A stretch of 64,000 nt of DNA from an uncultured bacterium (GTDB lineage Bacteria; Omnitrophota; Omnitrophia; Omnitrophales; Aquincolibacteriaceae): NCBI GenBank assembly GCA_964434115.1, contig CAYSSX010000010.1:17795-81794 (forward strand). The letters run 5' to 3'. A program made the position numbers and the translations under genes. The notes beneath the pieces are model-generated. The model searched no databases, had not been told where the DNA came from, and worked only from the letters and a program-made list of their open reading frames with translations. Of the stretch, positions 3-51,823 are shown piece after piece; position 1 is the first letter of the stretch, and each line of letters starts with the position of its first letter.

Positions 3-518
3 TCTTTTCAGGAGCGCGCGACCCGGGTGTCGCACCGCAACATGGGTCTCCTTGCGCACAAATGCGGGGGGAAAAAACTGGGGAAAATATGCGCCCTGAT
101 CGCGGGCGATGAAGCCCGCCATGAGCAGGCCTATCAGAATCTCTTCAAGGTTTGTCTGAAAGTCGATCCCAGTGAAGCGCTGGTCGCCATGGCCGATATG
201 CTGCTGTCAAAAGTGGTGATGCCAGCGAGACTCATGGATGACGGCTCTGGCCGTGATTTGTTTTCGGATTATTCGATTGTGGCCCAGAAGCTGGGAATTT
301 ATACGACCCGGGATTATGCGGAAATGCTGCTTTTTCTTGCGGAGACCTGGGAAATTGAGAAATTCAAAAATCTTTCGCCCGAAGCCGCGCAGGCGCAGGA
401 AAAAGTCATGAAGACCGCGGAGAAATACCTCCGCAAATCCGAGAGCCTTTCTGCAGCCATCCAGTCAATTGAAGTCAAACCCTTCTCCTGGGTCACCCCG
501 CAAAAAACCCACGCTTAA
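3..518 (+). CDS. Soluble diiron acyl-ACP desaturase (stearoyl-ACP desaturase family), C-terminal part. The 5' end lies outside the window.
   Basis: The frame is open from nt 3, and the GTG at 27 is only the ORF-caller start. The translation (SFQERATRVSHRN...ICALIAGDEARHEQAY...AMADMLLSKVVMPARLMDDG...DYSIVAQKLGIYT) aligns with the C-terminal half of plant and mycobacterial DesA-type acyl-ACP desaturases (FQERATFISHGNTARLA...IAADEKRHE...). The TAA at 516-518 overlaps the stop of the convergent giant gene. Confidence 0.8.
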   Translation, partial: SFQERATRVSHRNMGLLAHKCGGKKLGKICALIAGDEARHEQAYQNLFKVCLKVDPSEALVAMADMLLSKVVMPARLMDDGSGRDLFSDYSIVAQKLGIYTTRDYAEMLLFLAETWEIEKFKNLSPEAAQAQEKVMKTAEKYLRKSESLSAAIQSIEVKPFSWVTPQKTHA

Positions 519-28724: not shown

Positions 28725-31700
28725 ATGAAAAAAAATCTGCCTCTTAAAATCATGGCCGCTTTCACGGCGATTTCCCTGATGACAGATCCGGGAAACGTCT
28801 ATGCCGCCACCGGTCTGCCCAAAGCAGCTTCTTCCCCAGCAAAAGCTCCCGAAATTTCAGAAACTGCCGGCCAAATGGAAGATTTTTTTCAGGGAACTTC
28901 CGCAAAAACTATTCTCTACATTCAGGACGCCCATGACTCGCTTGAGGCGCAGAAAAACATCGCGTCCCTGATTTCTCAATTCACCGAAAAGGACGGGGTC
29001 AAAACTGTTTTTGAAGAAGGGTATGAAGGCCCGGTTCCGACAGACCGCTTTTTCGGGTTCATACCCGCCTCTGAAATCCGGGAAAAGGTTTCCGGTTTTC
29101 TTTTGGACAAGCTCCGGATCGGGGGCGCGGAATATGCCCATATCAATCGGAAGACAGACTTCAAGCTCATCGGCGCGGACAATCTGGACAAATACAAAAA
29201 AAACATTGAGGCCTTCCGCGCGGCAGCCAAAGAAAATCAAGTCATTGCCCGCGATCTTGACGCCATCCTTACGGAAATCGAGTCCCTGGCGAGTCAGCGC
29301 TTTCCCAAGTCCTTCCGCGAATGGGTGAAACTACGCGACAAATACGACTGCGCGGCGGTTGATCTTCTAGACTACTTAAAGCGCACAAGAAAAATCCTTG
29401 AGACTTCTCCCTCCGGCCTTGCCGGCGTTCCGGAAAAAATTCCGGCCATCGAACTTTTACTTAGGGCTTCGGCTTCGGATCAGAATGAAACCCTGACCAC
29501 TCAAGCCAAAACCATTACCCCTCAAGCCCTGTTTCAGGATCTCGCAGCTTTGGATACCCTGACCGCAGAACGGTTCCTGACCGCGGAAGGAGACCGCCGG
29601 ATTTTTCACTACCGCGAAGCTTTGCATCTTCTGAAGCGCCTTAATCAAATGGAGGTCACGCCGGCCGAGTACGCGGCCTCTCAAAAAATGATTACCGGGC
29701 TCAACACCCGGGAACTGGCCGACTTTATCGCACGCGAATCCAAAAAGTCCCTGGTTCTTTCCAAGGCATGGGAAAACAGCATTCAAAAAGCCTCAGCGTT
29801 TTATGAATTGGCAAAGCAGCGTGACGAAGCCATTGAGAAAACACTTTCGGACTTCCTTCAGCAGCCGGATGAAACCACCGCCGTCCTCGTCTACGGCGGA
29901 TTTCACAAGGCCAACATTCTGTCGATTTTTCAAAAACTGGGCGTTTCCTACGGCATCATCACCCCGAAAATTTCAGGCCCGGACCCCGTTCATGAACGGT
30001 ATTACAAGGAACTCATGGCCGTGGGCCTGCATGACTATGAAAAAACCGTTCTCCCCGCCGCGGGAACTGCCGCACGGGCCACACGACCGCCATCTCTGTT
30101 TGTGGAAACTTTTGGCGAGGCCTCAATCCAGTCGCTTTACCGGACGGTTGAACAAAACCCGGATACGCCGCTTGAACTTCTTGAACGCGAAGTCCCAAGG
30201 TCAGAACTTCGCTCGGAAGCCAGCCCATCGGCAAATCTGATTGCCGCGGATTCAGCGCTTGCGGCCTTCGGCCGAGGTTTAGGCGTCAACTTTAATGTTC
30301 CCGAATCAGCGCTGCGAAACGGTTACTGGCAATACGAAATCAATCCGCTGCCAGCGGAAAGAAAAGTCATTCACAAGCGCATGATTCCGGCCTATAAAAA
30401 CGGCAGTGAACAGCTGCCCACCCATTTGCGTTTAATTTTCAAAGACCGCCAGCCGCTTCTTATTGTCTCTGACGGTATTGCCTGGGGCCAAATCCCTGAA
30501 GACATTCGATCGGCCAATGAAAAGGCCTTCATTGCCCGGTTCGCAGGCGTTTACAAACACCTTTCTCCGGGCAAGGCTCAGAAAAAAGGACGCGAAGAAT
30601 TCTTAAGATCCATTTCAAAAAAACAAATTGCTCTTGGGTTTTCCCTTGTACCCGAAGAAGCCCAGCATCCTTTCTTACTGGCCCAGAGATGGTTCGAAGC
30701 ACAAACCCAATCAGTCGGTACGTACTCTACACAGTTCTTTGATGTGACCAAACCCGAAGACCTGCAGTCCCCCATCCTCACCTTTGAGGGTGTCTACAAA
30801 CCCTACACGGTGAGCAGTCATCTCTTCAGGTCAGGGATCCGTCCTGGGAAAAATTCCCTGGTTTATGTTTTAGGATCAGGGTCGGGCGCGGATGCTCTCC
30901 GCGCCGCGGAAAAGGCCAAAGGCCAGATCCGGATTGTGGCCTCCGACATTGATTCTTTGGCCGCTGAAAACACCCGCTACAACGCTGCACGAAGCCCTTA
31001 CAGTGCAGTCATTGAAGTCCACCGGGCAGATCTTTTTAATATCCCCGGACGGCCGGAAGGTGAACGGGCTGATCATATTTACTTCAACCCTCCCTTGAGC
31101 ATGAATGCAGCGGACGGAAACCTTGCCACGGCAGATGAAGGCATGCGTGTCCTCACCCGCTTCCTGACCGAAGCACCGGATCATCTGAAAGAGACGGGCA
31201 CACTTGAACTCACTTATACCGAGACGCCTGAATTTCTTCATAAAGTTTATTCCCTCGGCTGGGAGCCAGCACTGATTGAGGGGCTTCATCTTTCACGTAA
31301 ACATTTTCCGAACAACCGTTCAGACTATGTCCGCTTCACACTTCGCCGCATGTCCACCAGCCGGACAGCGGAGCTGCAAGAGGTTGTGTCGGATTGGGCA
31401 AAACTGATTCCCCTGCAGAAAAAAACCCGGGGAGGGCCCAATCCCTTTACCGCGTCAGACCTGGCACTGCTGAAAGCCTTGAAAGGAAAGTATTCGGCAT
31501 CCCAGGATTTCACGGGCAGGCTTATTTCAAAAACGCTCTATGCGCTTGAAAAAATTTCACAGGGTCTTACACCGCTTCGTCCCGAAGACGACAAACGCTT
31601 CAACCTGAATTATCCGCAGACGCTTCCCGTCCCCGGCCAGGTTTACCAGCATTCCCAGCGCCAGGAGCTCACGGTCCAAGTCACGCGCCTTGAAAGCAAC

Positions 31701-34700
31701 GGCTCTTTTAATATTCAGTCTTTTCAAGACGGACGGTCTCAAGGCCCTGAACAAATAGTTCCCGAAGAACAAACAGAGGCTTTCCTTCGGGAATTTGCTC
31801 CGGTCCGCAGCGAACTGCGCATGGTGTCTTCTTTTGAAATGGAGCTGGCCTTCGGAGATCTTGCCAAGACTCCTACTTTAAGCGGCGGAAGAAACGATGA
31901 CTTCCTTTACGAGAACGGGAAGAAAGTTGCTGTCATTATGCCTTGGTCGAAATTTATTTACCGGGCGCTGGATTCGGACGGGCGCGAAATTCCCGACCGT
32001 ATTTACAAAATCACTCATTACGCGTCCGAAAACGAAACGCTTTTTGAGGAAGCCAAAAAGATTTTCGCTCTACAGACTCCTGGCGTTTCCAAATTGCAGC
32101 GCATCGGGACGCTGAAAAGCGGCGGCATGTGGGTGGAACTCAAAGGCATTGCTTCAGCACGTTCCATGGACCGCGAAATTTTCGGCAGAACGCCCCGGCT
32201 TTTCAATGTCCTGATCCGGGCCGGAGAGCTGTTAAAAGGTATTCATGAACGCGGGATCGTTCACGGCGATATCAAGCCGGAAAACCTTTTGATCAATAAC
32301 GCCCAGGAACTCGAATGGATTGATTTCGGCGGCAATTTCACACGCGGTTATGTGGCTCTGGATGAGGAAAAGAACCCGATCGAAGACAAAACTTCCCCGG
32401 ACGTGGATGTTTACAGTTTCATCATGATCATTGCGCACCTTTTGGATCATCAGATTCAGGCACAGTCTCCGGAAATCGGCAAAACTCTGCGCCGCATGCG
32501 GGACGAATACCTTCACCTCATTCTCAAGGACTGGACCTTTCAGCGTTTTGAAGAACTGCTTCAGATCGGGGTATGGACAGAGAAGCTGACCCCGCTTCCC
32601 CGTAAAAAATGGCCGAAAGACATGTCGGAAATCACTGAAAAATTAAAACACGATCTTCAGGAACTGTCGGAAAACCATCCTGAATTGTTCACAACCGCGG
32701 TTGAAGAAGAAAAGAAGCTGATTCACGCAAGCGTTCATTCGTCCGAAACCAGGGACACCGCACAGAAACTCAAGCAGCTTCTCGACACTCTTCAGCGTGA
32801 CGGCGCGCTTCACCCCGGGAAAATTGCGGTCACGGATTTGAGCCGGGGCGCGGTCGCTCCCGCGTTCAAAGAACAGGTCGAGGCCTTTTCTCATCAAAAA
32901 GAAATCAGCATTGTCATGGAAGGGGCTTATCTTGACGATTGCTGCCGGCAGGCCTCCTGGACGCTTCTCGAGTATGCCCGGAACAATCCCGAAAAAAATC
33001 TGAACCTCCACTTCCCCGTCGACTTGATCGCGTACCCTCATGACTTTCTCGCTGAATCCGATTCAAAAGAAAAAATCAGCGCGCTGCTCTTTAACCTTGA
33101 GGCAGACGCGGCGGGCCTTTCTTACGAAGTCTTCGTGGACGGTGTAAAAACTGAAAGCACTGATGCGCCAGCCGGCCCCCAGGAGCCGGTTCGCGTGAAA
33201 CTTTACCTGTGGTCTGATTCACTGCTCATGGCCCAGACCGTGACTGAATCCCTCAGGCCCGGTTCCGGGGACCAGAACACAGATTCCCGGTCAGAGTTGA
33301 GGCAGCCCGGGGAAACAAATCCCCTTATCCAAAATCTTTTTTTTGAAAAAGAAATCACGCCTGAAACGATTGCCGCGGCGGAAGCCCTGATTCCAAAACC
33401 CATTCTCGACAGACTGATCCGGGAAGGCTATGAGCTTCCTAAGGGATTCAAGACCCAAGGGGCTCCGGGAGCCGCCCGAAAATTGATTTTGGATATCCAA
33501 AAAGGCGCCGGATCTCTGCAAATTATTTTAAAGGACAGGAAAAACCCCAGTTATGAATTTTTGAAAATTCCGCTCAGCGTCAAAGGGAAACAGCTCGGCC
33601 TCGGCTTCGGCCATTTGAATCAATTCAGTGAGGCAAAAACCGCTTATCCTGGGTACGACGACCCTGTCTTTGCCTGGTGGTTCCTGAAAAACCTCGTTCC
33701 TTTTGCAAAGCAAACAGGCTTTGACGATTTCGACCTTATTCAAGGCCCGCTTTCTGATGATGATTTAACAAAAGCCGGTTTTAAACTTCGCGACGAAGAG
33801 TCTGGCGTTCCTTTATGGATTTATGACCTAAAGCTGCGGGAATCCCGGTCTGAACTAAGGAACGACGGCGAGCGGTTGGAAATCCCGCTGGGAGAAACCC
33901 GGAAAGTGACCGTCGCGGCAGGCGAAAAAATTCTTGTGTCGGGTTTTGATCCGAAACGAAGAACCTCGGCACTGATTGAAATAAGATCCGTTGAAAAATC
34001 CCCGGGAAGAGAAATTGGGGGCCGTTTCAAAGCCCCGCGCCGTGAAGCGGAAATCCGCATCTCTGCACCGCCCGAAATTGTCATTTTGAGGGACACGGAA
34101 TGGCTGGAGTTTCTTTCGGACCACGAAAACCCGGACGCGTCCGTCAACATTTTTGGGCATTGGAACCGTCCGGCACTTTGGGCACTCCGGGACAAACTGA
34201 TCGCGAGGAGCTTTGGCAGGCGCTTTATGAGCTGGCGCGCGTATCTTCCGGAAGAGAGAAAAGTCTACCTCATGGACCTCAATACCCGGGCCCGGGTCGA
34301 GATTGAAATAACGAATACGGATATCGAAAAAAATGAGGCGGACCTGATCCTTCGTCCCGTCGTGAGCGCAGAATTTGGAACAGGGTATTTCGTGCAGGCC
34401 TTTTCAAATTCGCAGCAGCCTGTCTCTGCTATCCGTTCTGAATTGAGCCGAGCTAAAATCAATGAGACAGAGCTCAGTGAAGTCAAAACGCACGCGCAGC
34501 GGGTGGCTGCTGATTTCGGTTTTCCATCCGAGTTCACTAGCTTTGCTGTCCTGGATAAAGTCCACGCGCCAGAAATCGATCCGGATTTGACGGCCTACCT
34601 TGTAAAACTCACAGTCCTTCTTCCCTCTTCCACGGAAACAGAAAAAGAATTTTTAATCGGTCTTGATCAAAACCGCCGGCTTGCGGCGGGTGCCTGGCTG

Positions 34701-37700
34701 ATACCACTCAATGCACAAGAAAAGACTTTTCAGATGGGGCAAACCCGGGCCTTCATCTCCCAAAAGGGCTTGATGCAAAGAACCCTCACCCTTGCCTTAA
34801 AAAGCGGTGTCATCAACACATGGTTTTCAGATACCGAGTACAACCGGTCAGATGATGCGGAAGACATGTATGACCGCCTGATGAAAGACCCGGAACTTAG
34901 CATCGAAGAAATTCAGGACCAGTTCAAGGTGAAGCTCCGTACCCGCTCAGAACTTCGTGCTTTGGCGTCTAACAATGCCGACGCCCCCGCCCTTCTTGAG
35001 GCCTATCCCAAGCTGAAGCAAATCTCGGATGCATGGGAAGAATTTCTTAGAAACTCGGAAGTCGACCGCAATAAATTCCTGAATGCTTATGAAGGCGGCG
35101 CTTTTGTTCGCTCCCCTTTCCAGTGGATGAACTTCATGAAAGAGAACTGGAACCTGAATGCCCAAAGCCGCATTCTGGATGTGGGCAGCGGCAACGGGCT
35201 TGCGGCCATGGCTTTTAATATTCTCACCGGCGCCCAGGTCACATCCATTGAGATCGATCCCATGCGCTGGGTGGTGCTCCAGAATTTTCTCACTTTCCTG
35301 AAGGATCAAAAAGGGCTCGAATTTCCAGGGGTCCGCTTTGAGCAGGGCGATTTTCTAAAATACCCGCTTGAAGGCGTGGATTTCATTTATTTTTATTACA
35401 CGCATCCGGTCGTGCATCAAGCCCGCCAGGGTGACGCCATTGTCGATCGCCTCGAAAATGATCTTCCTCAGGGTGCTGTTTTTGTAAGTCCGGGATTTTA
35501 TCTTGAAGCCGAATACAGCCGCATGCTTCTGAGAAGAATTAACCGTGAAGCCTACTTTGCAGAAACTTCTCTCCATTACCGTGAGGCCAGGCTTCCCCCA
35601 GGAAATCCTCTTCAGCACACACGCACAGCCGTGGTGCTGACAAAACGTATGGATGGGGCGATTCCTGAAAATCCTCCGCGCTCCGAATTGAGAGCTGCTG
35701 AAATTCCCGCGGAGCTCGCAGGCTTCAATTCGAACGCACCTCTTTGGGATTTTCTGAAATCCTTCGGCATTGATCCGTCAAAAGCAAAAATCGAAAAACT
35801 CGAAGGCCCTTGGGGACGCGTGCGCGCAGCCCAGCATGAGGTTTTTGGTGTCCTCCCGGGCTCTGAACTTGACGCGGCTGTCATGGAAAGTGCATTTGCA
35901 GTTTTTGACGCACAGGAAATTCGCGAGCGCCTCCGTCAAAATGGACACCCGGAAGATTCCGCCCTTCAATACCTTTATCTGCTGACTCATGAAAACAAAC
36001 CTGCAGCGTTTGTCTGGGCCATTCCCGGAGCTGCCTTTGAGCCCATATATTATTATCCGCTCAGAGGCAGAGAACAGCAGGCCCTTTGGCCTTCTGCAGA
36101 AGACAGGGGCTCAGACGGAGCCGCGTTAACACTTCCTCCGGAGACCGAGCTTTTTATCCGGCATTTTCACAAGAAAGATTATGGGAAAAACCCGGTCATG
36201 CAGGGCGGCTTGCCGTTGAGCACTCTCGGGCAGGGACTACCCGGAGCACAATTAAGAACCTTTGAAGAAGGCCTCGCTTTTCCTACGGTGTTTAGTTTAA
36301 ATCACGCCAGTTCAAAGGGGCTTGTCGCTGCCGCGGACCTGCTTATTAATAACGGTGTTCTCAGCGTCCGGGATAAAACCATTTCCGAAATCGGCTCTGG
36401 AGCCGGATGGATTGGAACCCAGATGACACTTCGAGGAGCCAGGGAAGCTCATCTGTACGACCTAACCTTGATCAAAGCCGCGAACGCGATGAGCACAGCG
36501 AAGCTCTTCGGAGCGGGTGAACGGGTTCACACTTACCGCTCCAAATCCGCCGATATTCTGCCTTCAAGCGACGTTTACTTCTGGAACATTCCAGATTTTT
36601 CGAGCAGCGCAAGAGATCTGTCAGGCAGCATGCCTCTTGATCAGAAAGCCAGCATCGACGTCAACAATAGAATCCGGATTGAGAGTGTTCAAAAAGTGTT
36701 TCATGAACTCTTGAACGCCTCTCCCGCCAGCGCGTCGTTTCTCGTTAGAATCAACCCGCTTGATGAATCAGCCTTCCGCGGCATGCTTAAAGAATCGGGA
36801 TGGGAGATTCATCCGAAAGCCGCCGGACTTATCCAAAACCCAGGAAGAGGCGGATCTTATTTTCTTTTGAGACCGGAACTTCAGGGAGCCGAAGCCAAAA
36901 CCCGTCAGGCCGAGGACAAACTTTCGCCAGGCCTGCAGAATAATCCGGAGCTGCTTGAAGCTTTCAGGGAAATCGGCCGGGATCTTCTCCCCCTCGGCAA
37001 TCAAATGCCAGTGCTGCTGGTTGAAGGCATGCCGGGGTCGGGGAAATCTTCACGCGCCAAGGATCTCAAAGCGGTCCTCGAAAGCGAAGGCCGAAGAGCG
37101 GTCATCATTCACAGTGAAAGTTATCTTCGAAACGGCCGCTACGACAAGCCTCTTAAAGGTTTCTTCGGCCTGCTCTTCCGGTGGCTCACCCGCCGCCCGG
37201 CCCGTGAACTCCTGGCTTACGCGGTGAGCATGTTTGTCAACGAAGGCACTGTTGCAAACTGGATCCAGCAGATTCAGGAAATCCAAAAGGAACCGGAAGG
37301 TTCGGGATTTTTAAAGATTAATGGAAACCCAAGAGATGACGTCTATATTGGTCCTGAGACGATCTTGATTATAGAAGGCACGCTATCCTCCGTCTTATTT
37401 GCCTCAGTTCCGAACGTCAAAAAACTATTCCTTGATCTTTCAGGTTCAAAAATACGAAGTCAGTTTATCCGCAGAGCCCTTCGGGAAACAAACCTGGGCC
37501 CGGTCTATGCTTTCTTCAAAGCATGGCTTATGGTTCCTGAAATCGCGGTCCGCTTTTTCAGAATTCTTTCACGGAATTTTGATTTTATCTTGAACCTTAC
37601 GGATGAAAAGAGTCCGGTGCTAACCCGGCCGCACAAACTTTCAGGTCAGCCCCATGCCGCAAGTCCGCGGTCTGAGCTCCGGGCTGAAAAATCTGGCCAG

Positions 37701-40700: not shown

Positions 40701-43700
40701 CGGCAGTTCCTTCCCCCTGAAGCAAAACTCGTACTCGCGCCGGGCATGGAACCGGAAGCACGCATGACTTACTGGCCCAGCGTTCAGGGTTCGATCCGCT
40801 CCCGCGAAGAAGTCTTCGGAGGTCTGGATCATGAAGGGTTTGATGTGGCGCATATCCAGACCCCTGACGCTGCTCAGCGGCAGCTGAAGGAAGGAACGCC
40901 CATTCAATCCCTGGTGAATGAAAGGGGCCGGGTCCAATGGGTCTTTGAGGATAATGTTCAATCCACGGCCATTGTGTTAAGTGATCTGGTCATGCCCATC
41001 GGATCCACAAGAATGCTGATCCCGAAAAATCCGGACGATGTGGCCCAGCTTCAAAGACGGACTGACGGCACCATCGGTTTTCCGGAATCCGTGGAAGTCG
41101 AAACGGTAGAAACCCCGGGAGAAAGGTACCGCATCGCATTCGTTTACACGCACCTGAAACTCGAGGATTGGGTCCGGCCCGGCGCTGAAATCAAAGCCAG
41201 CGATCCGAGAACCCTCGGCACGATTGAGCGCCACCGCAAATACCCTTTTTCGCCGGTGGTCCCCCATCTGCACTTTGCGGTCATGCTTTTCAAAGAAAGT
41301 GAAATCGGAAAATACCCTTCGTTGAATTATGATTTGCTCAACAGCAAACTCGGCCCTAATAAAACAGTGCTCTATGTCAACCCGCTCAGTCTTTTGGATG
41401 CGGCCCAGCGCACGGACCTTTTTGTGGAGGGCGATGCTGCCCGTCCGGGTTTTCGCTCCGCGGCGATCCAAGCCCTTGATCCCAATGCTTTAAAATCCGT
41501 GCGTGCCCGGCTGGCGCACACCCTGCTCGGTATTCCAGTCTGGACAGCCGCGTCACCCGCTCAGCTCTCTGAAGAAATGCAGCAAAGCGACCTCGTGATT
41601 CATCAAACACCGGCAGGCTGGGAAATTTTGTTGAGCGGCCTGATGAAAGACAAACTTCTTCATTTGAAAACAACTGCCGCGGACGAAGACGAACTCATCC
41701 AGCTCATCGAGGCTATGGATCTTCAGCTCAGGCGCCCCAAACATGACGCCCTCGGTTTGTCGATGAAAGAAACCAAAACCATGACGCCTTCCGAAACCGT
41801 GGAAGCGATCCGGAGCATGGCCTCGCGGGAAGAAATCAAGGATCATCATGACAGTGCTTTCATTGATGTGGTTCATCCGGATTTCGCACTGGTCAACATC
41901 GGTTACGGCGTGCACGCCGGCCTTCTGACGCCTTCGGATTCAAAAGGCTTCAACACGGATACGAGAATCTTCTTTTTCAGGATTCATTACCGTCCGGACC
42001 GGGAAATTCACGGACAGAAAATCCCTGAATACCTCGTCATCAAACCTCCTTATCTGGTGGAAGATCCTTCTGTACAGAAAGCCGGGGCCGGCGATCTTTC
42101 AAAAATGGAACCCGGTCTTTATACGGATTTAATTTCGCTCGCCCGTTTTCTTTTGGCGGGAGGATTCCCGGAAAACACAAAGATCCGTGTGGATGAATTC
42201 GACAATTTTCCGAATATTCTCGGGACTCTGGCCCTGCATGAAGAGGATGGAGCCCTGCCTCTCGCAAGACTTTCGGCCCTTCCCACAGAGCTTGCGCGTT
42301 CTGAATTAAGAGCTGCGGGGGAAACCTCGGAAGCCGCGGATCAAAAAGAAAGCCTGCTTCCCTCGCTCTGGGCAGGCGCTCGATCCGCTTTTGGGAAGCG
42401 TGTTTTCAGTTATGAGGAGTTCACCGCCAAGGCTTTCCCTGTATCAAAAGCCGTTTTCCGCAGCCAGTTCGAACTTTTGGAAACCCTTGGACTTGCCAGG
42501 GTTGAGCGTGCAGAAGGCATCTCCGGAAGACCACTCCGGGTAAGACTCACACGCGCTGCGGAAAAGTGGACAGCAGACAAACGGCGCATCCATGAAGAGG
42601 AACTCGATTTTCTGCTGCACCAATACAGCCGTCCGGGAGACGAGGAAATTATACGTCCCCAAGTGGCACGCGTGCTTTCGGGAGAACAGCTTTTTAAACT
42701 GCCGGTTCAAGCAGACTCTTATGAAAAACAGGAAATTGACATGTCCAGGGATGACTATTTCTTCCCTGGCCTTGTGATTACTTTCAGAACCCTCAGGAAT
42801 TATTTCGGCAAAGAATATGTCAAGGCCTCCGCTCTTGCAGAACTTCTCAATAAAAACGACGACAAGGGCCGGGCTCTTCGAAAATGGGTGGAAGATCTTG
42901 AAAAACTCGGCCTTCTCGAAACCTCCCGCAAAGGCGCAACGGGAAGCGTTTGGGTACGCCTGCGGCAAGACCTTGACAGTATCAAGGCCGCCAAAATCGA
43001 GCAGGTTCTTCTTGAGTCCTCAAAAACCAAAGCGGATCCTTCTCTTTCCTTCAAAATCCGGAACATTCTGGAAGACCGCGCAGCTCCCGTTGATCAGCAT
43101 AAATCAGCCGTAACAACTCCGCCGGCAAAGGTTCTGGGGCAGTGGAAGCTGACACTGCCGACACTCGTCCGGGCGATTGAGGAAGAAGAACTAGCTCAGC
43201 AGAGCCAGGGGATTCAGGAGCCTTCTGTCCGCTTGAATCAGGTCGCAAAACGACTCAATGTTAACATCACGGCTTTTCATCAAAGTATTCTACAAAACTA
43301 TGTCGATTTGAGGCGGCTTGGTATCCAAGGCCTGGCCCTGGGGCTACCCGTAGACAGCTCAACAACTCCCGAACCCCGAAAAAGGAATCCTCTGGATCTG
43401 GAAAAAGCCCGTCCCGTTTTTGAGCAGTTGATCCGCTCCGCTGTACAGCGCCTGCGCGGCACAGACCCGGAGTTTGCTGAAATTCCCATCAGAACTTCCC
43501 TTCTGGCTTATGAGCTCGGACTCAGTGACACAGGGCTTCGGGATCCGCTGAAGGAGCTCAGCCTTCTTCCGCTCTTGGAAGAGCTGGGGGTCTTTTCATT
43601 CAAGCCTTCAACACCCGCGCTGGAAAATCAGACCCGGGAATTCCTGAAATCCTTAAATCTGCAAGACACCCAGGAGCTGGTCGATTTCACAATCGGGAAA

Positions 43701-46700
43701 TCAGGCACTCGAAGAAAAGCGCCTTCAAAAGATCCTTCCTTTGATACAGTGCAGCGGGTCTTGGACAAATGGATCAACGAGCAGGATATCCGCCGAAAGC
43801 AGCGCCGCAGAGACTATGTGGAGGCTCTTCAGCGCCAGGCCGTGGAGGATTACGAGGAAGCTCTTCCGGCTTCAGCCGGGCTGGACGAAAAGAAAAAAGC
43901 GCTGCGAGCTCTTTTCCCCGGCCACCCAGCACTCCTGGAAGAAGCGGGACTGGATCCCGCCGCTCAAAAACCCCTGGATGAATATCTGATACCCGCAGGC
44001 GTCCGGACAAATTTTGAAGGCTATCTCCGTGACTTCAGAAGCGGGTTCCTTAACGAGCTGGGTGTATTGAAACTGCATACCAAAATTAACTTTCAGATTC
44101 TTATGGCCGCAGTTGAAGCGCGTGACAGAACAGCTGCCGCTGATGAAATTAAAGCCGAAAGATTCACGGGTTTTGGTGTTTCAAGTTTTGAAGGTGTCAT
44201 GCAGAAGGCTAAGAAAATGAAGACACTCCAGTCCTTTTGGAGTGCGTGGGATTTGGCTGACCAGTACCCTCCTCTTGGCGGCGAAATCATCAACGAGCTT
44301 AAAACCCTCGACCGTTTTTATGGAAACCGTTCCGAGCTCCGCAGCATGAATGAAGCCGCTCTGAAAGAGACTCTCAAAAAGAGCACTGATCTTATGACCT
44401 GGTTCCAGGCCCTTGGAAATTTCGAACCCGAAGACCTGAATCAAAAAATACAAATCACGCTTCAGATCTCAAGGGGCATTCAATTGAAAATGCCGATGCT
44501 TCGCTCCCTGCTGACAGATCCTGAATTTAAAGCATCCGCGCACCGCTTCATCGCAGCCTGGATTTATAACCTCTCCGTTGTTTACGGTACCGGTTTTGCT
44601 GCCGCCGGCGTGGAAGGCGAACCCGATCTTGTCGACATCAAGCTCCTTGAAGACCTCCTGACCTCGGGGGATTTGTCCAGCATCCGCGAATCCCTGGGTA
44701 AAGGGCCGGAGAATCCTCTCGGTATCCGTAATTACGCTAACGCGGGGCGCGAAGTGGTCATCAAGCGGCTTAATGAGCTCACGGATCAGGAAAAAGAAAT
44801 CACGCCCACGGCTATGGACATCAGACTTCAGACCGAAGTCGCTGGAGCTTATCTTGGTGTTGACGTGGGCGGAGGCTCCGCCAAGTGGGCGGTCATCAAA
44901 GACGGACAAATTCTTTCCCTGCCCGCGGAATTAAAGAGCACGACCACTCTTTTACTGAACACGGCCGGAGATCCTGTCAAAGAAACCGCGGCGGAATACG
45001 TAACGCGTCTCACAGCTCATGCTCAGAAAATTCTCGCTTATGTCGGCCAAACCTACGGCATTGAAAAATTTGACGGCGTGGGGATCGACATCCCCGGTGC
45101 TGCGGACTTTGAAAGCAACCGCATGGTGACGCTGGGCCAGATTCCGGTGAAGAAAGAATGGAATCAGGGGGATGTGGAATGGGCGGGGCGGGAAATTCCC
45201 CTTCAAATGGCGGCGGCACTCGATCTTGATTCAGGGCATGTCAAAATCCGCAACGACATGGATGGTGTTCTTCCCGGGGTCGCATCGGTGCTGGCTCAGG
45301 CCAAACCGGATTTCTGGACAGAAACTCAGGGGAACTTCGGCTTTGATTGGATGGGCACCGGCCACGGTAACCAGTATGCTGTGGGCGGCGTTCCGATGAA
45401 CGCTCCGACAGAGTCCGGACACATGATGTTTGAATTCGGAAAACCCGGCAAAGGAATCTTCGACACCGAGGCCTACACAAGTATTCCGAGCATGCTGGCC
45501 TATGCCCGCGCACTCGTTCAACAAAAAGGCATTACCTGGCATGAAATCTCAAGCGATCAGCTGAAGCCCTTGGCAGATCAAGCATTCTATGAGGGTGCCA
45601 ACTCCGTAGAATTATCCAAAAAAGAAATCGCTCTTCGAGTTTTCGACCGCTTTGCTGAAAAATACGCGGCCAACCTTGCGCAGCGTTACACCCTTGCCCG
45701 GGGAAGCGTCTACGGCAATGCGGCCGACGTTCTTTTGGGCGGCGGCATTGCCCGCGGACAAACCGGCGCACTTTTAAAAGACCTCACAATGGAAAAGCTA
45801 AAAGCCTATGGTCTGGAAAGCGCCATTCGCATTACCGTGATTCAGGACGATGACATCCGCGCGGCCGGTCTTGATCCTGATGATGTCGGGCCTGTCGGGT
45901 CAGCTTATTTTATTCAAAGTATTCTGGCCAATCAACCGCCGGCTCCAAACGGCCGGGACTTTGAACTCGGGGGCATTTCTCAGGGCACAAATGACACTGA
46001 AATCAATACCGCTTCAAAACGTCTTCTCGAACTCATGTCCGGCAAAGCGGTTTCCTGGATCCAGCCCGGAATACCCGGTGGTGAGAGTGAACGTCGTACG
46101 GTCATCCTTTCGGATGAGAGCGAATACTTTCAGTGGCGCACAACCCCGGATCAAAAACCTCTCCGGGCGGATCTCCACTTCCACAGCCGTCCCGCGGAGG
46201 AAGAAGTCCGGGCCTTCCCGAATCTTGAAAAGCTTCAGGCTGGCGACCCCGAACTGGCCGCTCTCACCTCCGACTTCGGAAAAATTTCCGGAAATTTTTT
46301 CAAAGCTCCCGATGGAGAGATCGTGTTTATCGTGAGCGTTGTACAGACCGGTGAAAACTGGAGACTTCTCGAAAGAACCACCAAGAACCGATATGACCCT
46401 CACCGGGGCTCAAGTGAGCGCCCTGAAGGAAACCGTTACAGCTGGTATGGAGCGCTTATCGCGTCCTTGGAAGACGCGCTTCGTGAAATGGGCATTCACA
46501 AAATCGCGGTCCTTTCCTCGGACGGCGTCAAAGAAATCCGTGACATCAGCGGCATCAAAATTCAAGACCCGATCACACAAAAAATGTACGGTAAGCCCGG
46601 CCCAGGCTACAGCGCAGACAGGATCACGCTGACCGCACCCGGGGAAACGCATGAGCTTCAAGTCTGGGTCAAGCCGCTTGGCAGCGAAACGCGTTCTGAA

Positions 46701-47210
46701 CTCAGGCAAAGTGAACGCACGGATACTTCCCTTCAAAAAGGAACACTGCTCATCAATGCGGACATGCTTGCCGGTTTATCCCCAGCCCAGGCTGATGAAC
46801 TTTTCTCAAGGCTCTACCTCAATAAAACAGATCTCCGTCTTGTGGTGTTCAATGAAAACGGACAGGTTCCTTTGACCCCGGCTTTCAACGCCATTCTCAA
46901 ACTTCCCAATGTTTTCAAGACTTCCGGAAGCGATTACAATGCGGCGGGAGAAAAATATGGTTTTCCGAACAGCGTGAGTGTTCTCTTTCTGAACCCGGGT
47001 GAAATTTTTCAACCCAAGAGTAACCTTTTAAAAGCCGTGCTGCTGAAAAAACGGGCGGGAGAAATTGAGTTCGCGAGACTGCTGGCTTTTAACGGCGGGA
47101 AACTACCTGAGGCTTCGGAAGAGAACGGGGTTTTTGATCCCCCTGCCAGCTTCCTTTCAGATCTTGACCAAAGAATCCTGAGCACGCTGGTGATCGCATA
47201 CTCCGCTTAA
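28725..47210 (+). CDS. Giant exported multi-enzyme protein, 6161 aa. It has a signal peptide, a shared N-terminal domain, four Rossmann/SAM-MTase-like cores, a Ser/Thr kinase-like core, a P-loop, an M23-like motif and an ASKHA sugar-kinase-like motif. There are 12 exact RSELR punctuation motifs plus one RSELSR variant.
   Basis: An 18.5 kb uninterrupted ORF. The N-terminus MKKNLPLKIMAAFTAISLMTDPGNVYA-ATG reads as a Sec signal. Domain motifs are listed as separate features. The gene ends 10 bp from the convergent CHASE2 kinase gene. Confidence 0.85.
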   Translation: MKKNLPLKIMAAFTAISLMTDPGNVYAATGLPKAASSPAKAPEISETAGQMEDFFQGTSAKTILYIQDAHDSLEAQKNIASLISQFTEKDGVKTVFEEGYEGPVPTDRFFGFIPASEIREKVSGFLLDKLRIGGAEYAHINRKTDFKLIGADNLDKYKKNIEAFRAAAKENQVIARDLDAILTEIESLASQRFPKSFREWVKLRDKYDCAAVDLLDYLKRTRKILETSPSGLAGVPEKIPAIELLLRASASDQNETLTTQAKTITPQALFQDLAALDTLTAERFLTAEGDRRIFHYREALHLLKRLNQMEVTPAEYAASQKMITGLNTRELADFIARESKKSLVLSKAWENSIQKASAFYELAKQRDEAIEKTLSDFLQQPDETTAVLVYGGFHKANILSIFQKLGVSYGIITPKISGPDPVHERYYKELMAVGLHDYEKTVLPAAGTAARATRPPSLFVETFGEASIQSLYRTVEQNPDTPLELLEREVPRSELRSEASPSANLIAADSALAAFGRGLGVNFNVPESALRNGYWQYEINPLPAERKVIHKRMIPAYKNGSEQLPTHLRLIFKDRQPLLIVSDGIAWGQIPEDIRSANEKAFIARFAGVYKHLSPGKAQKKGREEFLRSISKKQIALGFSLVPEEAQHPFLLAQRWFEAQTQSVGTYSTQFFDVTKPEDLQSPILTFEGVYKPYTVSSHLFRSGIRPGKNSLVYVLGSGSGADALRAAEKAKGQIRIVASDIDSLAAENTRYNAARSPYSAVIEVHRADLFNIPGRPEGERADHIYFNPPLSMNAADGNLATADEGMRVLTRFLTEAPDHLKETGTLELTYTETPEFLHKVYSLGWEPALIEGLHLSRKHFPNNRSDYVRFTLRRMSTSRTAELQEVVSDWAKLIPLQKKTRGGPNPFTASDLALLKALKGKYSASQDFTGRLISKTLYALEKISQGLTPLRPEDDKRFNLNYPQTLPVPGQVYQHSQRQELTVQVTRLESNGSFNIQSFQDGRSQGPEQIVPEEQTEAFLREFAPVRSELRMVSSFEMELAFGDLAKTPTLSGGRNDDFLYENGKKVAVIMPWSKFIYRALDSDGREIPDRIYKITHYASENETLFEEAKKIFALQTPGVSKLQRIGTLKSGGMWVELKGIASARSMDREIFGRTPRLFNVLIRAGELLKGIHERGIVHGDIKPENLLINNAQELEWIDFGGNFTRGYVALDEEKNPIEDKTSPDVDVYSFIMIIAHLLDHQIQAQSPEIGKTLRRMRDEYLHLILKDWTFQRFEELLQIGVWTEKLTPLPRKKWPKDMSEITEKLKHDLQELSENHPELFTTAVEEEKKLIHASVHSSETRDTAQKLKQLLDTLQRDGALHPGKIAVTDLSRGAVAPAFKEQVEAFSHQKEISIVMEGAYLDDCCRQASWTLLEYARNNPEKNLNLHFPVDLIAYPHDFLAESDSKEKISALLFNLEADAAGLSYEVFVDGVKTESTDAPAGPQEPVRVKLYLWSDSLLMAQTVTESLRPGSGDQNTDSRSELRQPGETNPLIQNLFFEKEITPETIAAAEALIPKPILDRLIREGYELPKGFKTQGAPGAARKLILDIQKGAGSLQIILKDRKNPSYEFLKIPLSVKGKQLGLGFGHLNQFSEAKTAYPGYDDPVFAWWFLKNLVPFAKQTGFDDFDLIQGPLSDDDLTKAGFKLRDEESGVPLWIYDLKLRESRSELRNDGERLEIPLGETRKVTVAAGEKILVSGFDPKRRTSALIEIRSVEKSPGREIGGRFKAPRREAEIRISAPPEIVILRDTEWLEFLSDHENPDASVNIFGHWNRPALWALRDKLIARSFGRRFMSWRAYLPEERKVYLMDLNTRARVEIEITNTDIEKNEADLILRPVVSAEFGTGYFVQAFSNSQQPVSAIRSELSRAKINETELSEVKTHAQRVAADFGFPSEFTSFAVLDKVHAPEIDPDLTAYLVKLTVLLPSSTETEKEFLIGLDQNRRLAAGAWLIPLNAQEKTFQMGQTRAFISQKGLMQRTLTLALKSGVINTWFSDTEYNRSDDAEDMYDRLMKDPELSIEEIQDQFKVKLRTRSELRALASNNADAPALLEAYPKLKQISDAWEEFLRNSEVDRNKFLNAYEGGAFVRSPFQWMNFMKENWNLNAQSRILDVGSGNGLAAMAFNILTGAQVTSIEIDPMRWVVLQNFLTFLKDQKGLEFPGVRFEQGDFLKYPLEGVDFIYFYYTHPVVHQARQGDAIVDRLENDLPQGAVFVSPGFYLEAEYSRMLLRRINREAYFAETSLHYREARLPPGNPLQHTRTAVVLTKRMDGAIPENPPRSELRAAEIPAELAGFNSNAPLWDFLKSFGIDPSKAKIEKLEGPWGRVRAAQHEVFGVLPGSELDAAVMESAFAVFDAQEIRERLRQNGHPEDSALQYLYLLTHENKPAAFVWAIPGAAFEPIYYYPLRGREQQALWPSAEDRGSDGAALTLPPETELFIRHFHKKDYGKNPVMQGGLPLSTLGQGLPGAQLRTFEEGLAFPTVFSLNHASSKGLVAAADLLINNGVLSVRDKTISEIGSGAGWIGTQMTLRGAREAHLYDLTLIKAANAMSTAKLFGAGERVHTYRSKSADILPSSDVYFWNIPDFSSSARDLSGSMPLDQKASIDVNNRIRIESVQKVFHELLNASPASASFLVRINPLDESAFRGMLKESGWEIHPKAAGLIQNPGRGGSYFLLRPELQGAEAKTRQAEDKLSPGLQNNPELLEAFREIGRDLLPLGNQMPVLLVEGMPGSGKSSRAKDLKAVLESEGRRAVIIHSESYLRNGRYDKPLKGFFGLLFRWLTRRPARELLAYAVSMFVNEGTVANWIQQIQEIQKEPEGSGFLKINGNPRDDVYIGPETILIIEGTLSSVLFASVPNVKKLFLDLSGSKIRSQFIRRALRETNLGPVYAFFKAWLMVPEIAVRFFRILSRNFDFILNLTDEKSPVLTRPHKLSGQPHAASPRSELRAEKSGQGKDRLFDPAQSPGELTAEEKEMIRQTQRTGLFRAGPLDETKPLWLFGEQDVMGPFIAGHLGDAAAPLIKPELYAGKKVLVVPGYGNLPFLLRAFGAREVTAMDLDPATIAWQKLKWKSGTEELQNWLFVTETSRPMIRSHHRSGWVSNLDQPPAGDVMDHMTFQTGNILNPIPLSGEKYDLVVIPYLFGFAHGLVTEDQWDKVLENLAKVLTPEGRVILVPGKMDLSKFRESDEKSQTENYQIWLNDLERKGWKVSHSKRYGFHNILGYEPVSAGFSILTPRSELRPEELGSFFQKVRDVFDHLPADFKHRNVLGYEFKTPQEVSEHLGGLGDEVSAAVAGIYHTRGFMMGSESIDPQDTGKPVHSRTFWIDPSNPNFRFAALLEVIKRGTEAVEGVYDQRDTEAAVNLLRQHLGEKPEKQALTAGLASFSSWRTLLDEVMVMDQRRISRSELRTKTQVEMNFDVPVEISGLAELIAKAPTIEALAQDPAQKIRRFPDGTYGNLYDAPFGHYPSYKILWQNGDLTVSHQLFKDHPLEIIYFSAAKQGSLFSLQIESGKIKKLYAYDPSRIEPFIFSPQSEGMPFKEEVIRWLKLKKPDDAAIKAAYARVEKDKADVWENLGVMMMMDQFDTSVTGKAPEMLASDEAALTARIKDMHHGIFWEQDLFQFTDGSWAFLDGKSGLVPNLEDSFRSRAHISIHNHPMMAPEEESGISRGDQGVFLKETSLKAEYVIADYGGAYKMTLSAEAPDPGAGEKILEGLQKHVTLTGVSRAWVHDTESGRWIKIEYLPEDAFQKLFLEHGLKIFTDVNLDWKSFGESKRSELRAPEQPEKSKEKAVKAPDELQVMRNSLRHFLRRQLAGRPIDPSKYVFISDFLPYRILAARNAEGKILGFAFGKKGNRRMHSLITEEGHEPSGFLHEKDEHGVRIITYVTEGDKNYKEDEFVLGRYGDVYRLKIEESGGTPTQQAIEYASWMPSYMLTKAQEVEALSKILGPQLYAGLRQFLPPEAKLVLAPGMEPEARMTYWPSVQGSIRSREEVFGGLDHEGFDVAHIQTPDAAQRQLKEGTPIQSLVNERGRVQWVFEDNVQSTAIVLSDLVMPIGSTRMLIPKNPDDVAQLQRRTDGTIGFPESVEVETVETPGERYRIAFVYTHLKLEDWVRPGAEIKASDPRTLGTIERHRKYPFSPVVPHLHFAVMLFKESEIGKYPSLNYDLLNSKLGPNKTVLYVNPLSLLDAAQRTDLFVEGDAARPGFRSAAIQALDPNALKSVRARLAHTLLGIPVWTAASPAQLSEEMQQSDLVIHQTPAGWEILLSGLMKDKLLHLKTTAADEDELIQLIEAMDLQLRRPKHDALGLSMKETKTMTPSETVEAIRSMASREEIKDHHDSAFIDVVHPDFALVNIGYGVHAGLLTPSDSKGFNTDTRIFFFRIHYRPDREIHGQKIPEYLVIKPPYLVEDPSVQKAGAGDLSKMEPGLYTDLISLARFLLAGGFPENTKIRVDEFDNFPNILGTLALHEEDGALPLARLSALPTELARSELRAAGETSEAADQKESLLPSLWAGARSAFGKRVFSYEEFTAKAFPVSKAVFRSQFELLETLGLARVERAEGISGRPLRVRLTRAAEKWTADKRRIHEEELDFLLHQYSRPGDEEIIRPQVARVLSGEQLFKLPVQADSYEKQEIDMSRDDYFFPGLVITFRTLRNYFGKEYVKASALAELLNKNDDKGRALRKWVEDLEKLGLLETSRKGATGSVWVRLRQDLDSIKAAKIEQVLLESSKTKADPSLSFKIRNILEDRAAPVDQHKSAVTTPPAKVLGQWKLTLPTLVRAIEEEELAQQSQGIQEPSVRLNQVAKRLNVNITAFHQSILQNYVDLRRLGIQGLALGLPVDSSTTPEPRKRNPLDLEKARPVFEQLIRSAVQRLRGTDPEFAEIPIRTSLLAYELGLSDTGLRDPLKELSLLPLLEELGVFSFKPSTPALENQTREFLKSLNLQDTQELVDFTIGKSGTRRKAPSKDPSFDTVQRVLDKWINEQDIRRKQRRRDYVEALQRQAVEDYEEALPASAGLDEKKKALRALFPGHPALLEEAGLDPAAQKPLDEYLIPAGVRTNFEGYLRDFRSGFLNELGVLKLHTKINFQILMAAVEARDRTAAADEIKAERFTGFGVSSFEGVMQKAKKMKTLQSFWSAWDLADQYPPLGGEIINELKTLDRFYGNRSELRSMNEAALKETLKKSTDLMTWFQALGNFEPEDLNQKIQITLQISRGIQLKMPMLRSLLTDPEFKASAHRFIAAWIYNLSVVYGTGFAAAGVEGEPDLVDIKLLEDLLTSGDLSSIRESLGKGPENPLGIRNYANAGREVVIKRLNELTDQEKEITPTAMDIRLQTEVAGAYLGVDVGGGSAKWAVIKDGQILSLPAELKSTTTLLLNTAGDPVKETAAEYVTRLTAHAQKILAYVGQTYGIEKFDGVGIDIPGAADFESNRMVTLGQIPVKKEWNQGDVEWAGREIPLQMAAALDLDSGHVKIRNDMDGVLPGVASVLAQAKPDFWTETQGNFGFDWMGTGHGNQYAVGGVPMNAPTESGHMMFEFGKPGKGIFDTEAYTSIPSMLAYARALVQQKGITWHEISSDQLKPLADQAFYEGANSVELSKKEIALRVFDRFAEKYAANLAQRYTLARGSVYGNAADVLLGGGIARGQTGALLKDLTMEKLKAYGLESAIRITVIQDDDIRAAGLDPDDVGPVGSAYFIQSILANQPPAPNGRDFELGGISQGTNDTEINTASKRLLELMSGKAVSWIQPGIPGGESERRTVILSDESEYFQWRTTPDQKPLRADLHFHSRPAEEEVRAFPNLEKLQAGDPELAALTSDFGKISGNFFKAPDGEIVFIVSVVQTGENWRLLERTTKNRYDPHRGSSERPEGNRYSWYGALIASLEDALREMGIHKIAVLSSDGVKEIRDISGIKIQDPITQKMYGKPGPGYSADRITLTAPGETHELQVWVKPLGSETRSELRQSERTDTSLQKGTLLINADMLAGLSPAQADELFSRLYLNKTDLRLVVFNENGQVPLTPAFNAILKLPNVFKTSGSDYNAAGEKYGFPNSVSVLFLNPGEIFQPKSNLLKAVLLKKRAGEIEFARLLAFNGGKLPEASEENGVFDPPASFLSDLDQRILSTLVIAYSA
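28890..29990 (+). other. Shared N-terminal domain of the two giant proteins (unknown function, possibly TIKI/TraB/ChaN-like)
   Basis: ILYIQDAHDSLEAQKNIASLI...VKTVFEEGYEGPVP...REKVSGFLLDKLRIGGAEYAHINRK...VLVYGGFHKANI aligns residue-by-residue with the 515..8914 product. The DAH / EEGYEG / GGFH(K) triplet loosely recalls the GTxH...E...GxxH motifs of the TIKI/TraB/GumN superfamily. This is inference only. Confidence 0.3.
30867..31094 (+). other. SAM-methyltransferase-like module 1 (HemK/N6-MTase-like with NPP motif)
   Basis: Motif I VLGSGSGADAL at 30867-30899 and motif IV FNPPL at 31083-31097. Confidence 0.5.
31880..32620 (+). other. Eukaryotic-like Ser/Thr protein kinase catalytic core
   Basis: Catalytic loop IVHGDIKPENLL (HGD at 32262-32270). 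DFG-like IDFGG (32322-32330). Upstream Lys-region candidate KKVAVIMPW. Downstream DVYSFIMIIAHLL fits the kinase subdomain IX position. Confidence 0.6.
35171..35500 (+). other. SAM-methyltransferase-like module 2
   Basis: Motif I RILDVGSGNGLAAMAFNILTGAQVTSIEIDP. It lies between RSELR sites 5 and 6 and is 248 aa, roughly one MTase fold. Confidence 0.5.
36383..36700 (+). other. Rossmann/MTase-like module 3
   Basis: ISEIGSGAGWIGTQMTLRGAREAHLYDL. Confidence 0.4.
37026..37400 (+). other. P-loop NTPase/kinase-like module
   Basis: Walker A VEGMPGSGKSSRAK (37026-37052). Downstream IIHSE and LIIEGT resemble nucleoside/nucleotide kinase Walker B. Confidence 0.5.
37900..38350 (+). other. Rossmann/MTase-like module 4
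   Basis: KVLVVPGYGNLPFLLRAFGAREVTAMDLDP...DLVVIPYL. It lies between RSELR sites 7 and 8 and is 293 aa. Confidence 0.4.
41150..41330 (+). other. Degenerate M23-peptidase (LytM)-like motif
   Basis: VRPGAEIKASDP...GTIERHRKYPFSPVVPHLHFAV (PHLHF at 41262-41276) resembles the M23 HxxxD ... HLHFE zinc-ligand signature. Confidence 0.35.
44856..45800 (+). other. ASKHA-fold (ROK/BadF/glucokinase-like) sugar-kinase-like module
   Basis: Phosphate-1 loop LGVDVGGGSAKWAVIKDGQ (44856-44888). Later GVGIDIPGA and LGGGIARG resemble phosphate-2 and adenosine motifs. Confidence 0.45.
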
Positions 47211-50968: not shown

Positions 50969-50993
50969 AAAATCCCCTCCGGATCTTTAAAGC

Positions 50994-51730: not shown

Positions 51731-51823
51731 CATTGACAACATCCTCCCCCGCAGCCATCCATGGGGCCTGCCTCCTTTCCTTTTCCATATCTGCATAAGC
51801 AGATGTATTGATGCAAAAAAAAG

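Follow-up and report, generated by a model that had tools for sequence, protein, structure and literature searches.

A lineage-specific pentapeptide at the cassette joints of giant, predicted exported proteins of Omnitrophota

Giant genes in uncultivated bacteria with a predatory or episymbiotic lifestyle are still poorly understood. The stretch of DNA analysed here (the window, 64,000 nt of contig CAYSSX010000010.1 from an uncultured Omnitrophota bacterium) carries a giant open reading frame (ORF), termed G, at positions 28725..47210 of the plus strand. Its product of 6161 aa is predicted to be an exported modular polyprotein consisting of a head, 13-14 cassettes and a tail, and the pentapeptide RSELR recurs along its whole length. 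What is the function of this peptide? We consider it reasonably likely that G and its relatives form a family of exported multi-enzyme polyproteins, in which peptides of the type R-[S/A]-E-x-R serve as maturation sites.

The pentapeptide in two paralogous giant ORFs

Translation of G revealed 13 exact in-frame copies of RSELR and one RSELSR. A previous reading, made from the sequence only (the sequence-only reading), had listed 12 RSELR copies and the RSELSR at nt 34434. All of these coordinates are correct and in frame, but a thirteenth copy at nt 31806 (aa 1028) had been missed. What had been taken for a segment of 1030 aa is in fact split at aa 1028 into 536 and 494 aa, and the modules measure 167-788 aa. 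No other 5-mer of the protein comes close to RSELR (n = 13); the next unrelated ones have n = 2. The composition of G predicts 0.014 copies, close to the earlier estimate of about 0.01. Recurrence by chance, by low complexity or as a remnant of internal tandem duplication has the great length of the protein as its only point. It is refuted by the excess of observed over expected copies, by BLAST comparisons in which the modules are mutually unrelated, and by the presence of the motif in thousands of diverged proteins.

A second giant ORF, H, is located on the minus strand of the window (515..8914, 2799 aa). It has a head and a tail as in G and seven further exact copies of RSELR, the first bases of which are at nt 7078, 6262, 5032, 4429, 4369, 1927 and 1093 (minus strand). 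The head domain of H (7505..8914, minus strand) shares 42% identity with the G head over 461 aa, and the tail module (518..1078, minus strand; aa 2613-2799) ends in ...LVIEMAA-COOH. At aa 1496-1520 of H (window 4355-4429, minus strand) two RSELR copies enclose a mini-spacer of 15 residues (TTANALAQQGVQNVE); mini-modules of 7-40 aa between sites are present in relatives of H too. When G and H were split at the motif and all modules were compared with each other by BLAST, the first modules were homologous and no other relationship was found. G and H are paralogous members of one very large family. All 20 sites of the two paralogues (20/20) are exact RSELR, and a six-frame scan of the window found a single match outside G and H, which is out of frame and attributable to chance; the other real genes have none.

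The codons of the 20 sites are diverse, with six different Arg codons, six Ser codons (from both the TCN and the AGY families) and six Leu codons. This implies selection on the peptide and not on the DNA, as the sequence-only reading had concluded from fewer sites. That reading had also described a flanking pattern, of which a part stands: position -1 is S, P, T, A or N (that reading had given S, T, P or R), and position +1 is A, T, S or Q as described, followed by small or acidic residues or Pro.

Cassettes, family and punctuation

The sites divide G as follows (all positions on the plus strand). RSELR site 1 (30198..30212, aa 492-496) lies immediately behind the head, and most relatives have an equivalent first site. 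Cassette 1 (30213..31820, aa 497-1032), supported by domain matches and by an exact indel, is of the HemK/N6-type S-adenosylmethionine (SAM) methyltransferases (match at aa 700-834) and ends in site 2 (31806-31820), the copy missed earlier. Domain matches also assign cassette 2 (31821..33302, aa 1033-1526), which is Ser/Thr protein-kinase-like (match at aa ~1105-1376) and ends in site 3 (33288-33302). Further downstream are site 4 (33846..33860, aa 1708), the RSELSR variant (34434..34451, aa 1904), at the position of which the homologous cassette of locus L007 has a true RSELR, and site 5 (34944..34958, aa 2074). Cassette 6 (34959..35693, aa 2079-2323) is a SAM methyltransferase (match at aa 2146-2224) that ends in site 6 (35679-35693); the earlier statement that a methyltransferase module occupies exactly one segment between two sites was thus confirmed. 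Site 7 (37668..37682, aa 2982) ends cassette 7 with its KTI12-like P-loop (aa 2761-2801), and site 8 (38544..38558, aa 3274) ends cassette 8, which has a weak methyltransferase match (aa ~3149-3215). Site 9 (39048..39062, aa 3442), site 10 (40158..40172, aa 3812), site 11 (42297..42311, aa 4525) and site 12 (44328..44342, aa 5202) follow, and site 13 (46692..46706, aa 5990) stands immediately ahead of the C-terminal tail module (46707..47207, aa 5995-6161), which ends in ...LVIAYSA-COOH. For aa 3254-4542 no detectable homologue was found among 5.8 billion proteins.

Comparison with relatives shows what the sites delimit. The closest genome relative of G (L003, contig CAYRBY010000024.1 of a metagenome-assembled genome (MAG), 74% identity) joins the sequence before G site 1 to the sequence after site 2 by one RSELR, so that cassette 1 and one motif are absent; P0134 has the same shorter architecture. 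Cassette 6 of G can be aligned over its full length to a cassette of L057, which is enclosed by two RSEIR sites and occupies a different place in that protein. Residues 3274-3452 of G (cassette aa 3279-3446) match a cassette of L025 bounded by RAEVR sites, and residues 1500-1936 of H match a cassette of L015. Among non-orthologous pairs, 39% of the high-scoring segment pairs (HSPs) start at most 15 aa from a site, versus 7.7±3% for random positions, and 64 of 92 HSPs have no internal site. A complete HATPase_c domain in P0134 stops 3 residues ahead of RSELR, a lone cytidylate-kinase match in P0013 fills one cassette between two sites, and the number of Pfam domains that straddle a site is 0. 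The alignments place the gain, loss and exchange of cassettes precisely at the motif. Two proposals of the sequence-only reading, that single folds sit within single segments and that the motif marks module boundaries, are well supported by these data. The location of the sites outside folds is judged from one structure model, the envelopes of the Pfam matches, the boundaries of homologous regions and the composition.

Insertion, deletion and exchange of cassettes precisely at the motif would also be in agreement with a DNA recombination or cassette-insertion signal, similar to attC, of which RSELR would be the protein footprint. This explanation is largely refuted, since the 15-nt sites differ at every synonymous position (TCN versus AGY for Ser, CGN versus AGR for Arg). 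Moreover, the two junction 15-mers around the L003 indel are dissimilar, and the regions upstream of sites 1 and 2 have no similarity above the null expectation, as would be left by a duplication junction.

In order to define the family, the head profile was used in a full HMMER search against 1.84 billion cluster representatives (clusters at 50% identity). The head-domain family comprises 9400 proteins at E<=1e-3 and 6008 at E<=1e-30. The best 150 representatives are mostly 1-6.7 thousand aa (kaa) long, with the head at the N-terminus and a maximum length of 6726 aa. Punctuation was analysed in two data sets, 80 metagenome loci and 123 representative proteins of at least 1200 aa. In the metagenome loci, 221 R[SA]ExR sites were counted in 88.5 kaa, which is 2.5 per 1000 aa versus 0.066 expected by composition. 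Other ORFs of the same loci have 0.156 sites per 1000 aa, mostly in further paralogous giants. The 123 representatives gave a very similar density (848 sites in 349 kaa, 2.43 per 1000 aa). A lack of enrichment in homologous giants of other genomes had been named beforehand as a finding that would speak against the motif; a strong enrichment was found instead. RSELR itself, first described as the motif of one protein, turned out to be one form of R-[S/A]-E-x-R, the hallmark of a family of thousands with a lineage-specific x.

Five residues (V, L, M, A and I) occur at the variable position x, and proteins often use one of them throughout, for example L044 (12 RSELR), P0172 (16 RSELR), P0078 (15 RAEVR), P0047 (8 RSEAR) and P0079 (13 RSEVR). 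The identity of x follows the tree of the head domains, and in the clade of G and H it is L. Both flanks of 1083 family sites are enriched in P, S, T and A, followed by E, D or P, a linker-like composition. In some lineages the punctuation is of a different kind: GFG[A] replaces R[SA]ExR at equivalent places in L014 and L023 (15 and 9 copies), and among P0129, P0096 and P0116 we found GEIGF (6), LGWPS (6) and RPEAR (8).

The cargo of 144 cassettes includes receiver, radical SAM, methyltransferase, GNAT and protein kinase domains as well as acetate kinase, cytidylate kinase, NDK, epimerase, HAD and low-molecular-weight (LMW) phosphatase; most cassettes have no Pfam match. One cassette usually corresponds to one complete enzyme, as for cytidylate kinase, acetate kinase and NDK.

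In several loci a paralogous giant adjoins the family member: L028:1855-9039 (minus strand), L051:14186-21298 (plus strand) and L030:3707-9886 (plus strand), the heads in L028 and L051 being divergent. Genomes seem to carry several of these giant genes, as with G and H in the window. A peculiar arrangement was seen in L006:10779-14891 (GCA_023247035.1, JAHFHG010000017.1), where an in-frame stop at 12372-12374 parts an ORF with head and RSEVR from an ORF of 839 aa with three more RSE[VL]R sites. This stop could reflect a really split gene, read-through or recoding, or a sequencing error.

Head, tail and the question of cleavage

The N-termini of G and H have a basic n-region, a hydrophobic stretch and an end in ...YA↓A, and the same n-h-c pattern is found in homologues. 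In G this signal-peptide-like region (28725..28808, plus strand), read from the sequence, is composed of MKKN, the hydrophobic stretch and VYA↓A; residues 5-19 are helical in the structure model. No internal transmembrane-like segments were found in G or H. Both proteins are almost devoid of cysteine (3 Cys in the 6161 aa of G, 2 in the 2799 aa of H; family median 0.08%). Cysteine makes up 0.87% of the residues encoded by the remaining 28 window genes and is about 15-fold rarer in the giants (0.05-0.08%). Low cysteine content is typical of proteins that are exported unfolded. Because of the signal-peptide-like start together with the extreme cysteine depletion, we infer that the giants are exported by a Sec-type signal.

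AlphaFold gave a confident model for the G head (predicted local distance difference test, pLDDT, 87; predicted template modelling score, pTM, 0.83). The domain (28869..30191, plus strand; aa ~49-489) has an alpha/beta core with a parallel beta-sheet and a long helical insert of about 225 residues (aa ~154-378). Its final helix stops at residue 489, and RSELR at 492-496 is unstructured (pLDDT<50). The sequence-only reading had proposed to check by AlphaFold whether the motifs are located in disordered linkers, and in the one model that covers a site this is the case. Structural matches of the model were ChaN (9.4), EreC (9.3), a TraB-family protein (9.0), HopBA1 (8.6), the MARTX Ras/Rap1-specific endopeptidase RRSP (7.9) and PMT (7.0); Foldseek against the PDB matched the same structures to the head only weakly. 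The head thus has the alpha/beta core with parallel beta-sheet that is expected in the superfamily of these proteins, and it is structurally similar to solved members.

Active members of the TIKI superfamily share a signature of two His and two Glu residues, which in RRSP are E3900-x-H3902, E3930 and H4030; the signature residues of Bcr135 include H85 and E113 (PMC6254334). The G head has D68-A-H70, then E98 at His+28, the same spacing as in RRSP and Bcr135, and H394 within GGFH. The codons of these putative catalytic residues are at 28926-28928 (D68), 28932-28934 (H70), 29016-29018 (E98) and 29904-29906 (H394) on the plus strand. In an alignment of 34 heads the invariant columns are D68, A69, H70, A75, Q76, E98, G99 and G150. 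Across 181 heads, [DE]AH is present in every one (181/181), xEG at +27 to +29 in 179 (EEG in 172), and GG[FY]H in 160, the rest probably being fragments. Pfam and NCBIfam models gave no match to aa 1-496 of G at E<=0.01, including TraB, Cofac_haem_bdg and Erythro_esteras, and a profile search of the head against PDB sequences returned nothing relevant. Judging from model and signature, the head is best placed in the TIKI/TraB/EreA/ChaN superfamily, as a divergent branch without annotation, and the conserved residues suggest that it is probably an active hydrolase. In the set of 5.8 billion proteins 43 head homologues were found; five have a named source, four of them Candidatus Omnitrophota/Omnitrophica MAGs and one 'bacterium'. 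In those homologues that continue beyond the domain, RSE[LMVF]R comes next.

At the other end of the chain, a tail module of about 170-200 aa is nearly always present in complete family members. Its C-terminus follows the pattern hydrophobic-hydrophobic-x-x-[A/S]-Ala-COOH with Ala as the last residue (…VIAYSA, …VIEMAA, …VISTSA). The tail may act in sorting or as a signal for a PDZ-type protease. Neither Pfam nor PDB profile searches with the module gave a match, a further profile search gave only two fragments, and AlphaFold, starting from a four-sequence alignment, produced no usable fold (pLDDT 39.7).

Taken together, these features give the following picture. The protein starts with a predicted Sec-type signal peptide, followed by the head of about 450 aa, a variable set of unrelated cassettes and the tail of about 170-200 aa. 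Each joint carries R-[S/A]-E-x-R (in this genome always RSELR) amid some ten linker-like residues on either side. After export the chain would be cut at every joint, releasing the cassettes as separate proteins, and the cutting enzyme would most likely be the protein's own TIKI-like head, in a processing that is cis-acting or self-encoded. The sites are read as protease sites because a conserved pentapeptide stands once at each joint in a linker context, with a lineage-specific x common to paralogues and between shuffled complete enzymes; from these sequence features we favour cleavage, with moderate confidence. The assignment of the protease is more tentative. Since the contexts of the giant genes are unrelated and no neighbour gene is conserved, head and tail are the only parts that are always linked, and the head is the only hydrolase that always accompanies the sites. 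For this reason it is our preferred candidate, although we put its role as the protease at somewhat short of an even chance.

Several findings weigh against such self-processing polyproteins. Not every superfamily member is a peptidase: esterases (the Ere proteins), a haem-binding protein (ChaN) and an inactive protein (PMT) belong to it as well. Many cassettes are enzymes of a cytoplasmic type and depend on ATP, SAM or Fe-S clusters, so that a periplasmic location would suit them badly unless they are delivered into another cell. A mutual-information scan detected no head column near the catalytic motifs that tracks x, but only the motif itself and scattered columns. The catalytic residues of the head are unchanged in the lineages with GFG, GEIGF or LGWPS, which is awkward if the head alone sets the specificity, and distant head homologues (21-31% identity) as well as some stand-alone heads have neither cargo nor motif.

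The last three of these points would be expected if the sites were cut in trans by a protease encoded elsewhere, either an Arg-specific enzyme of the periplasm or outer membrane or one of the host or prey. The head would then have another job, such as attack on a target or anchoring: x varies without a co-varying head residue, GFG-type lineages retain the same head active site, and heads that stand alone point to a function independent of processing. In addition, RRSP and TIKI work on foreign substrates. The search for such a protease gave little, however. The sequence-only reading had suggested a co-varying protease gene, but none is close by in 60 loci; no conserved neighbour gene of any kind emerged there (the best cluster, a generic ABC-F, occurs in 6 loci), and no protease gene adjoins G or H. 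The only nearby candidate is a DUF922 protein (22422-22991, minus strand), which we take to belong to a family of predicted secreted Zn-peptidase-like proteins; it is 6 kb upstream of G, unlinked, and not conserved beside family members elsewhere. Furthermore, R, E and R do not vary across thousands of diverged proteins, which implies a recogniser as widespread as the family, and the protein's own N-terminal TIKI-superfamily-like domain is the only candidate that is constantly linked. We therefore regard a protease acting in trans as unlikely.

Two observations on the tail are also difficult to reconcile with sites that only separate cassettes. RSExR is found inside the tail at one conserved position in P0044 and P0045 (…NRSELRLVVFD…, where G has …NKTDLRLVVFN…), and the tails of L028, L041 and L048 have RSExR again close to the C-terminus. 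A motif within the tail module of some members, like tandem sites with spacers of 7-20 aa, would suit a motif that is never cleaved but is bound, once per linker, by a chaperone for export, by secretion or translocation machinery or by a partner in assembly, with the giant remaining one chain. The linker-like context and the lineage specificity would equally suit a co-evolving binding partner. Yet an invariant R..E.R once per joint, also directly behind the head and directly ahead of the tail, is characteristic of protease sites such as those of viral polyproteins and MARTX, and not of docking motifs. Unrelated complete enzymes in freely shuffled order have no need for physical cooperation, and the stop codon in L006 splits a polyprotein at a joint region, which implies that the pieces may exist separately. 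We consider an uncleaved docking or handling motif quite improbable.

If the preferred reading of a cleaved, exported polyprotein is followed further, the cassettes may possibly have their site of action on or within a cell of a host or prey. This idea is speculative; it would fit the proposed lifestyle of the phylum. A still wider proposal is that TIKI-type heads are maturation peptidases throughout the phylum, and possibly in relatives of it, acting on thousands of Cys-poor, Sec-exported polyproteins with lineage-specific R-[S/A]-E-x-R or GFG-type sites, each of which would bring up to about 20 enzymes to the surface or to the host or prey. We find this generalisation attractive but doubtful. 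Should it hold, these proteins would be a bacterial counterpart of viral polyproteins, and the punctuation may predict the cleavage map of the Omnitrophota giants of 10-150 kaa.

With the motif, the joints of a very large class of giant proteins (9400 clusters at 50% identity) can be recognised by a simple rule with overwhelming statistics, which provides the first concrete candidates for the places where such giants would be cut into separate enzymes. The head is a candidate for a built-in protease, and its putative catalytic residues are named. Giants can also be divided in silico into single cassettes for the prediction of structure and function. Should cleavage be confirmed, no larger family of bacterial polyproteins would be known, the TIKI superfamily would gain a new role, and orthogonal pairs of protease and site could be drawn from the family.

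The neighbours of G and H in the window include LexA, OYE, ABC-F, RNase H, AcrB/OEP and a histidine kinase, and the chromosomal contexts of family members in loci elsewhere vary. At 9368-12389 (plus strand) genes for a SAM methyltransferase, a FAD-dependent oxidoreductase (halogenase/monooxygenase-like) and a type III polyketide synthase are found, probably a small polyketide cluster. An arsenic-resistance-like set (ArsR-type helix-turn-helix protein, MIP channel, LMW phosphatase of the ArsC type) lies directly downstream of G (~50900-52000), as does a CHASE2 histidine kinase, and an OEP-AcrB efflux pair is located at 59255-63917. PADLOC matched only generic methyltransferase and kinase domains, and a defence system was rejected.

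Comparison with known systems

A literature search with the motif strings matched only an unrelated region of PL7 alginate lyases and returned nothing on Omnitrophota polyproteins. In PL7 enzymes R-S/T-E-L-R is part of one catalytic beta-strand and is found once per enzyme, alongside QIH and YFKAGxYNQ. QIH and YFKAGxYNQ are absent from G and H, and a relation to PL7 was rejected. In the searchable literature there thus appears to be no earlier description of the punctuation motif, of the architecture of head, cargo and tail, or of the TIKI-like head.

With the TIKI/TraB/PrgY/EreA/ChaN/GumN superfamily the head shares the core fold and the D/E-x-H...E(+28)...H signature. The members of this superfamily reside in the periplasm or otherwise outside the cytoplasm, and they include sequence-specific peptidases. 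The head differs from them in that it is missed by the sequence models of the superfamily, has the insert of about 225 residues and is fused to kilobases of cargo.

Viral polyproteins such as those processed by picornavirus 3C or potyvirus NIa resemble the giants in having many units per ORF and a short peptide with a lineage-specific position, and the viral protease is likewise embedded in the chain. In contrast, the giants are encoded on the chromosome of a free-living or episymbiotic bacterium, among housekeeping genes, with no viral hallmark genes in the surroundings of G and H; they are nearly free of cysteine and presumably exported, and their candidate protease is of the TIKI type and not of a chymotrypsin- or papain-like fold.

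The MARTX toxins of Vibrio and relatives are likewise giant proteins with unrelated modules that are exchanged as cassettes; they are secreted, and short sites between their modules are cut by a protease within the chain; one MARTX effector, RRSP, has the TIKI fold of the head. MARTX toxins have Gly-rich RTX-type repeats at both ends, are secreted by type I secretion with a C-terminal signal and are processed by an InsP6-activated cysteine protease that cuts after Leu. The giants differ by their Sec-type-like N-terminus, the TIKI-like head, the R-[S/A]-E-x-R sites and a tail of their own, and a Pfam scan of G found no RTX-type repeats, no type I secretion signal and no Peptidase_C80; the protein has only three Cys residues. 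Of the MARTX features, exchange of modules at the motif is seen in the giants, and processing at the motif would be the second.

Giant proteins of Omnitrophota are the subject of two preprints, both of which deal with proteins of at least 10-30 kaa that have many transmembrane helices and C39 and S8 peptidase domains. Nielsen & Lui (2026) defined a class of 'multi-enzyme metabolic cluster' giants of at least 10 kaa and say nothing of cleavage or of motifs. West-Roberts et al. (2023) described giants of the Archaeovorin/dockerin type, suspected cleavage into several products and stated that the cleavage points are unknown. The class 1 giants of Nielsen & Lui and the family described here both tile many distinct enzyme Pfams (methyltransferase, kinase, GNAT, HAD, receiver, radical SAM) without a dominant repeat, and both show a signal peptide or membrane anchor. 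With 6161 aa for G, 2799 aa for H and at most 6726 aa among the best 150 representatives, the family stays below the 10,000 aa of that class. In comparison with the giants of both preprints, its members are proteins of 1-7 kaa with no internal transmembrane segments, defined by a TIKI-like head, a tail and the pentapeptide between their cassettes.

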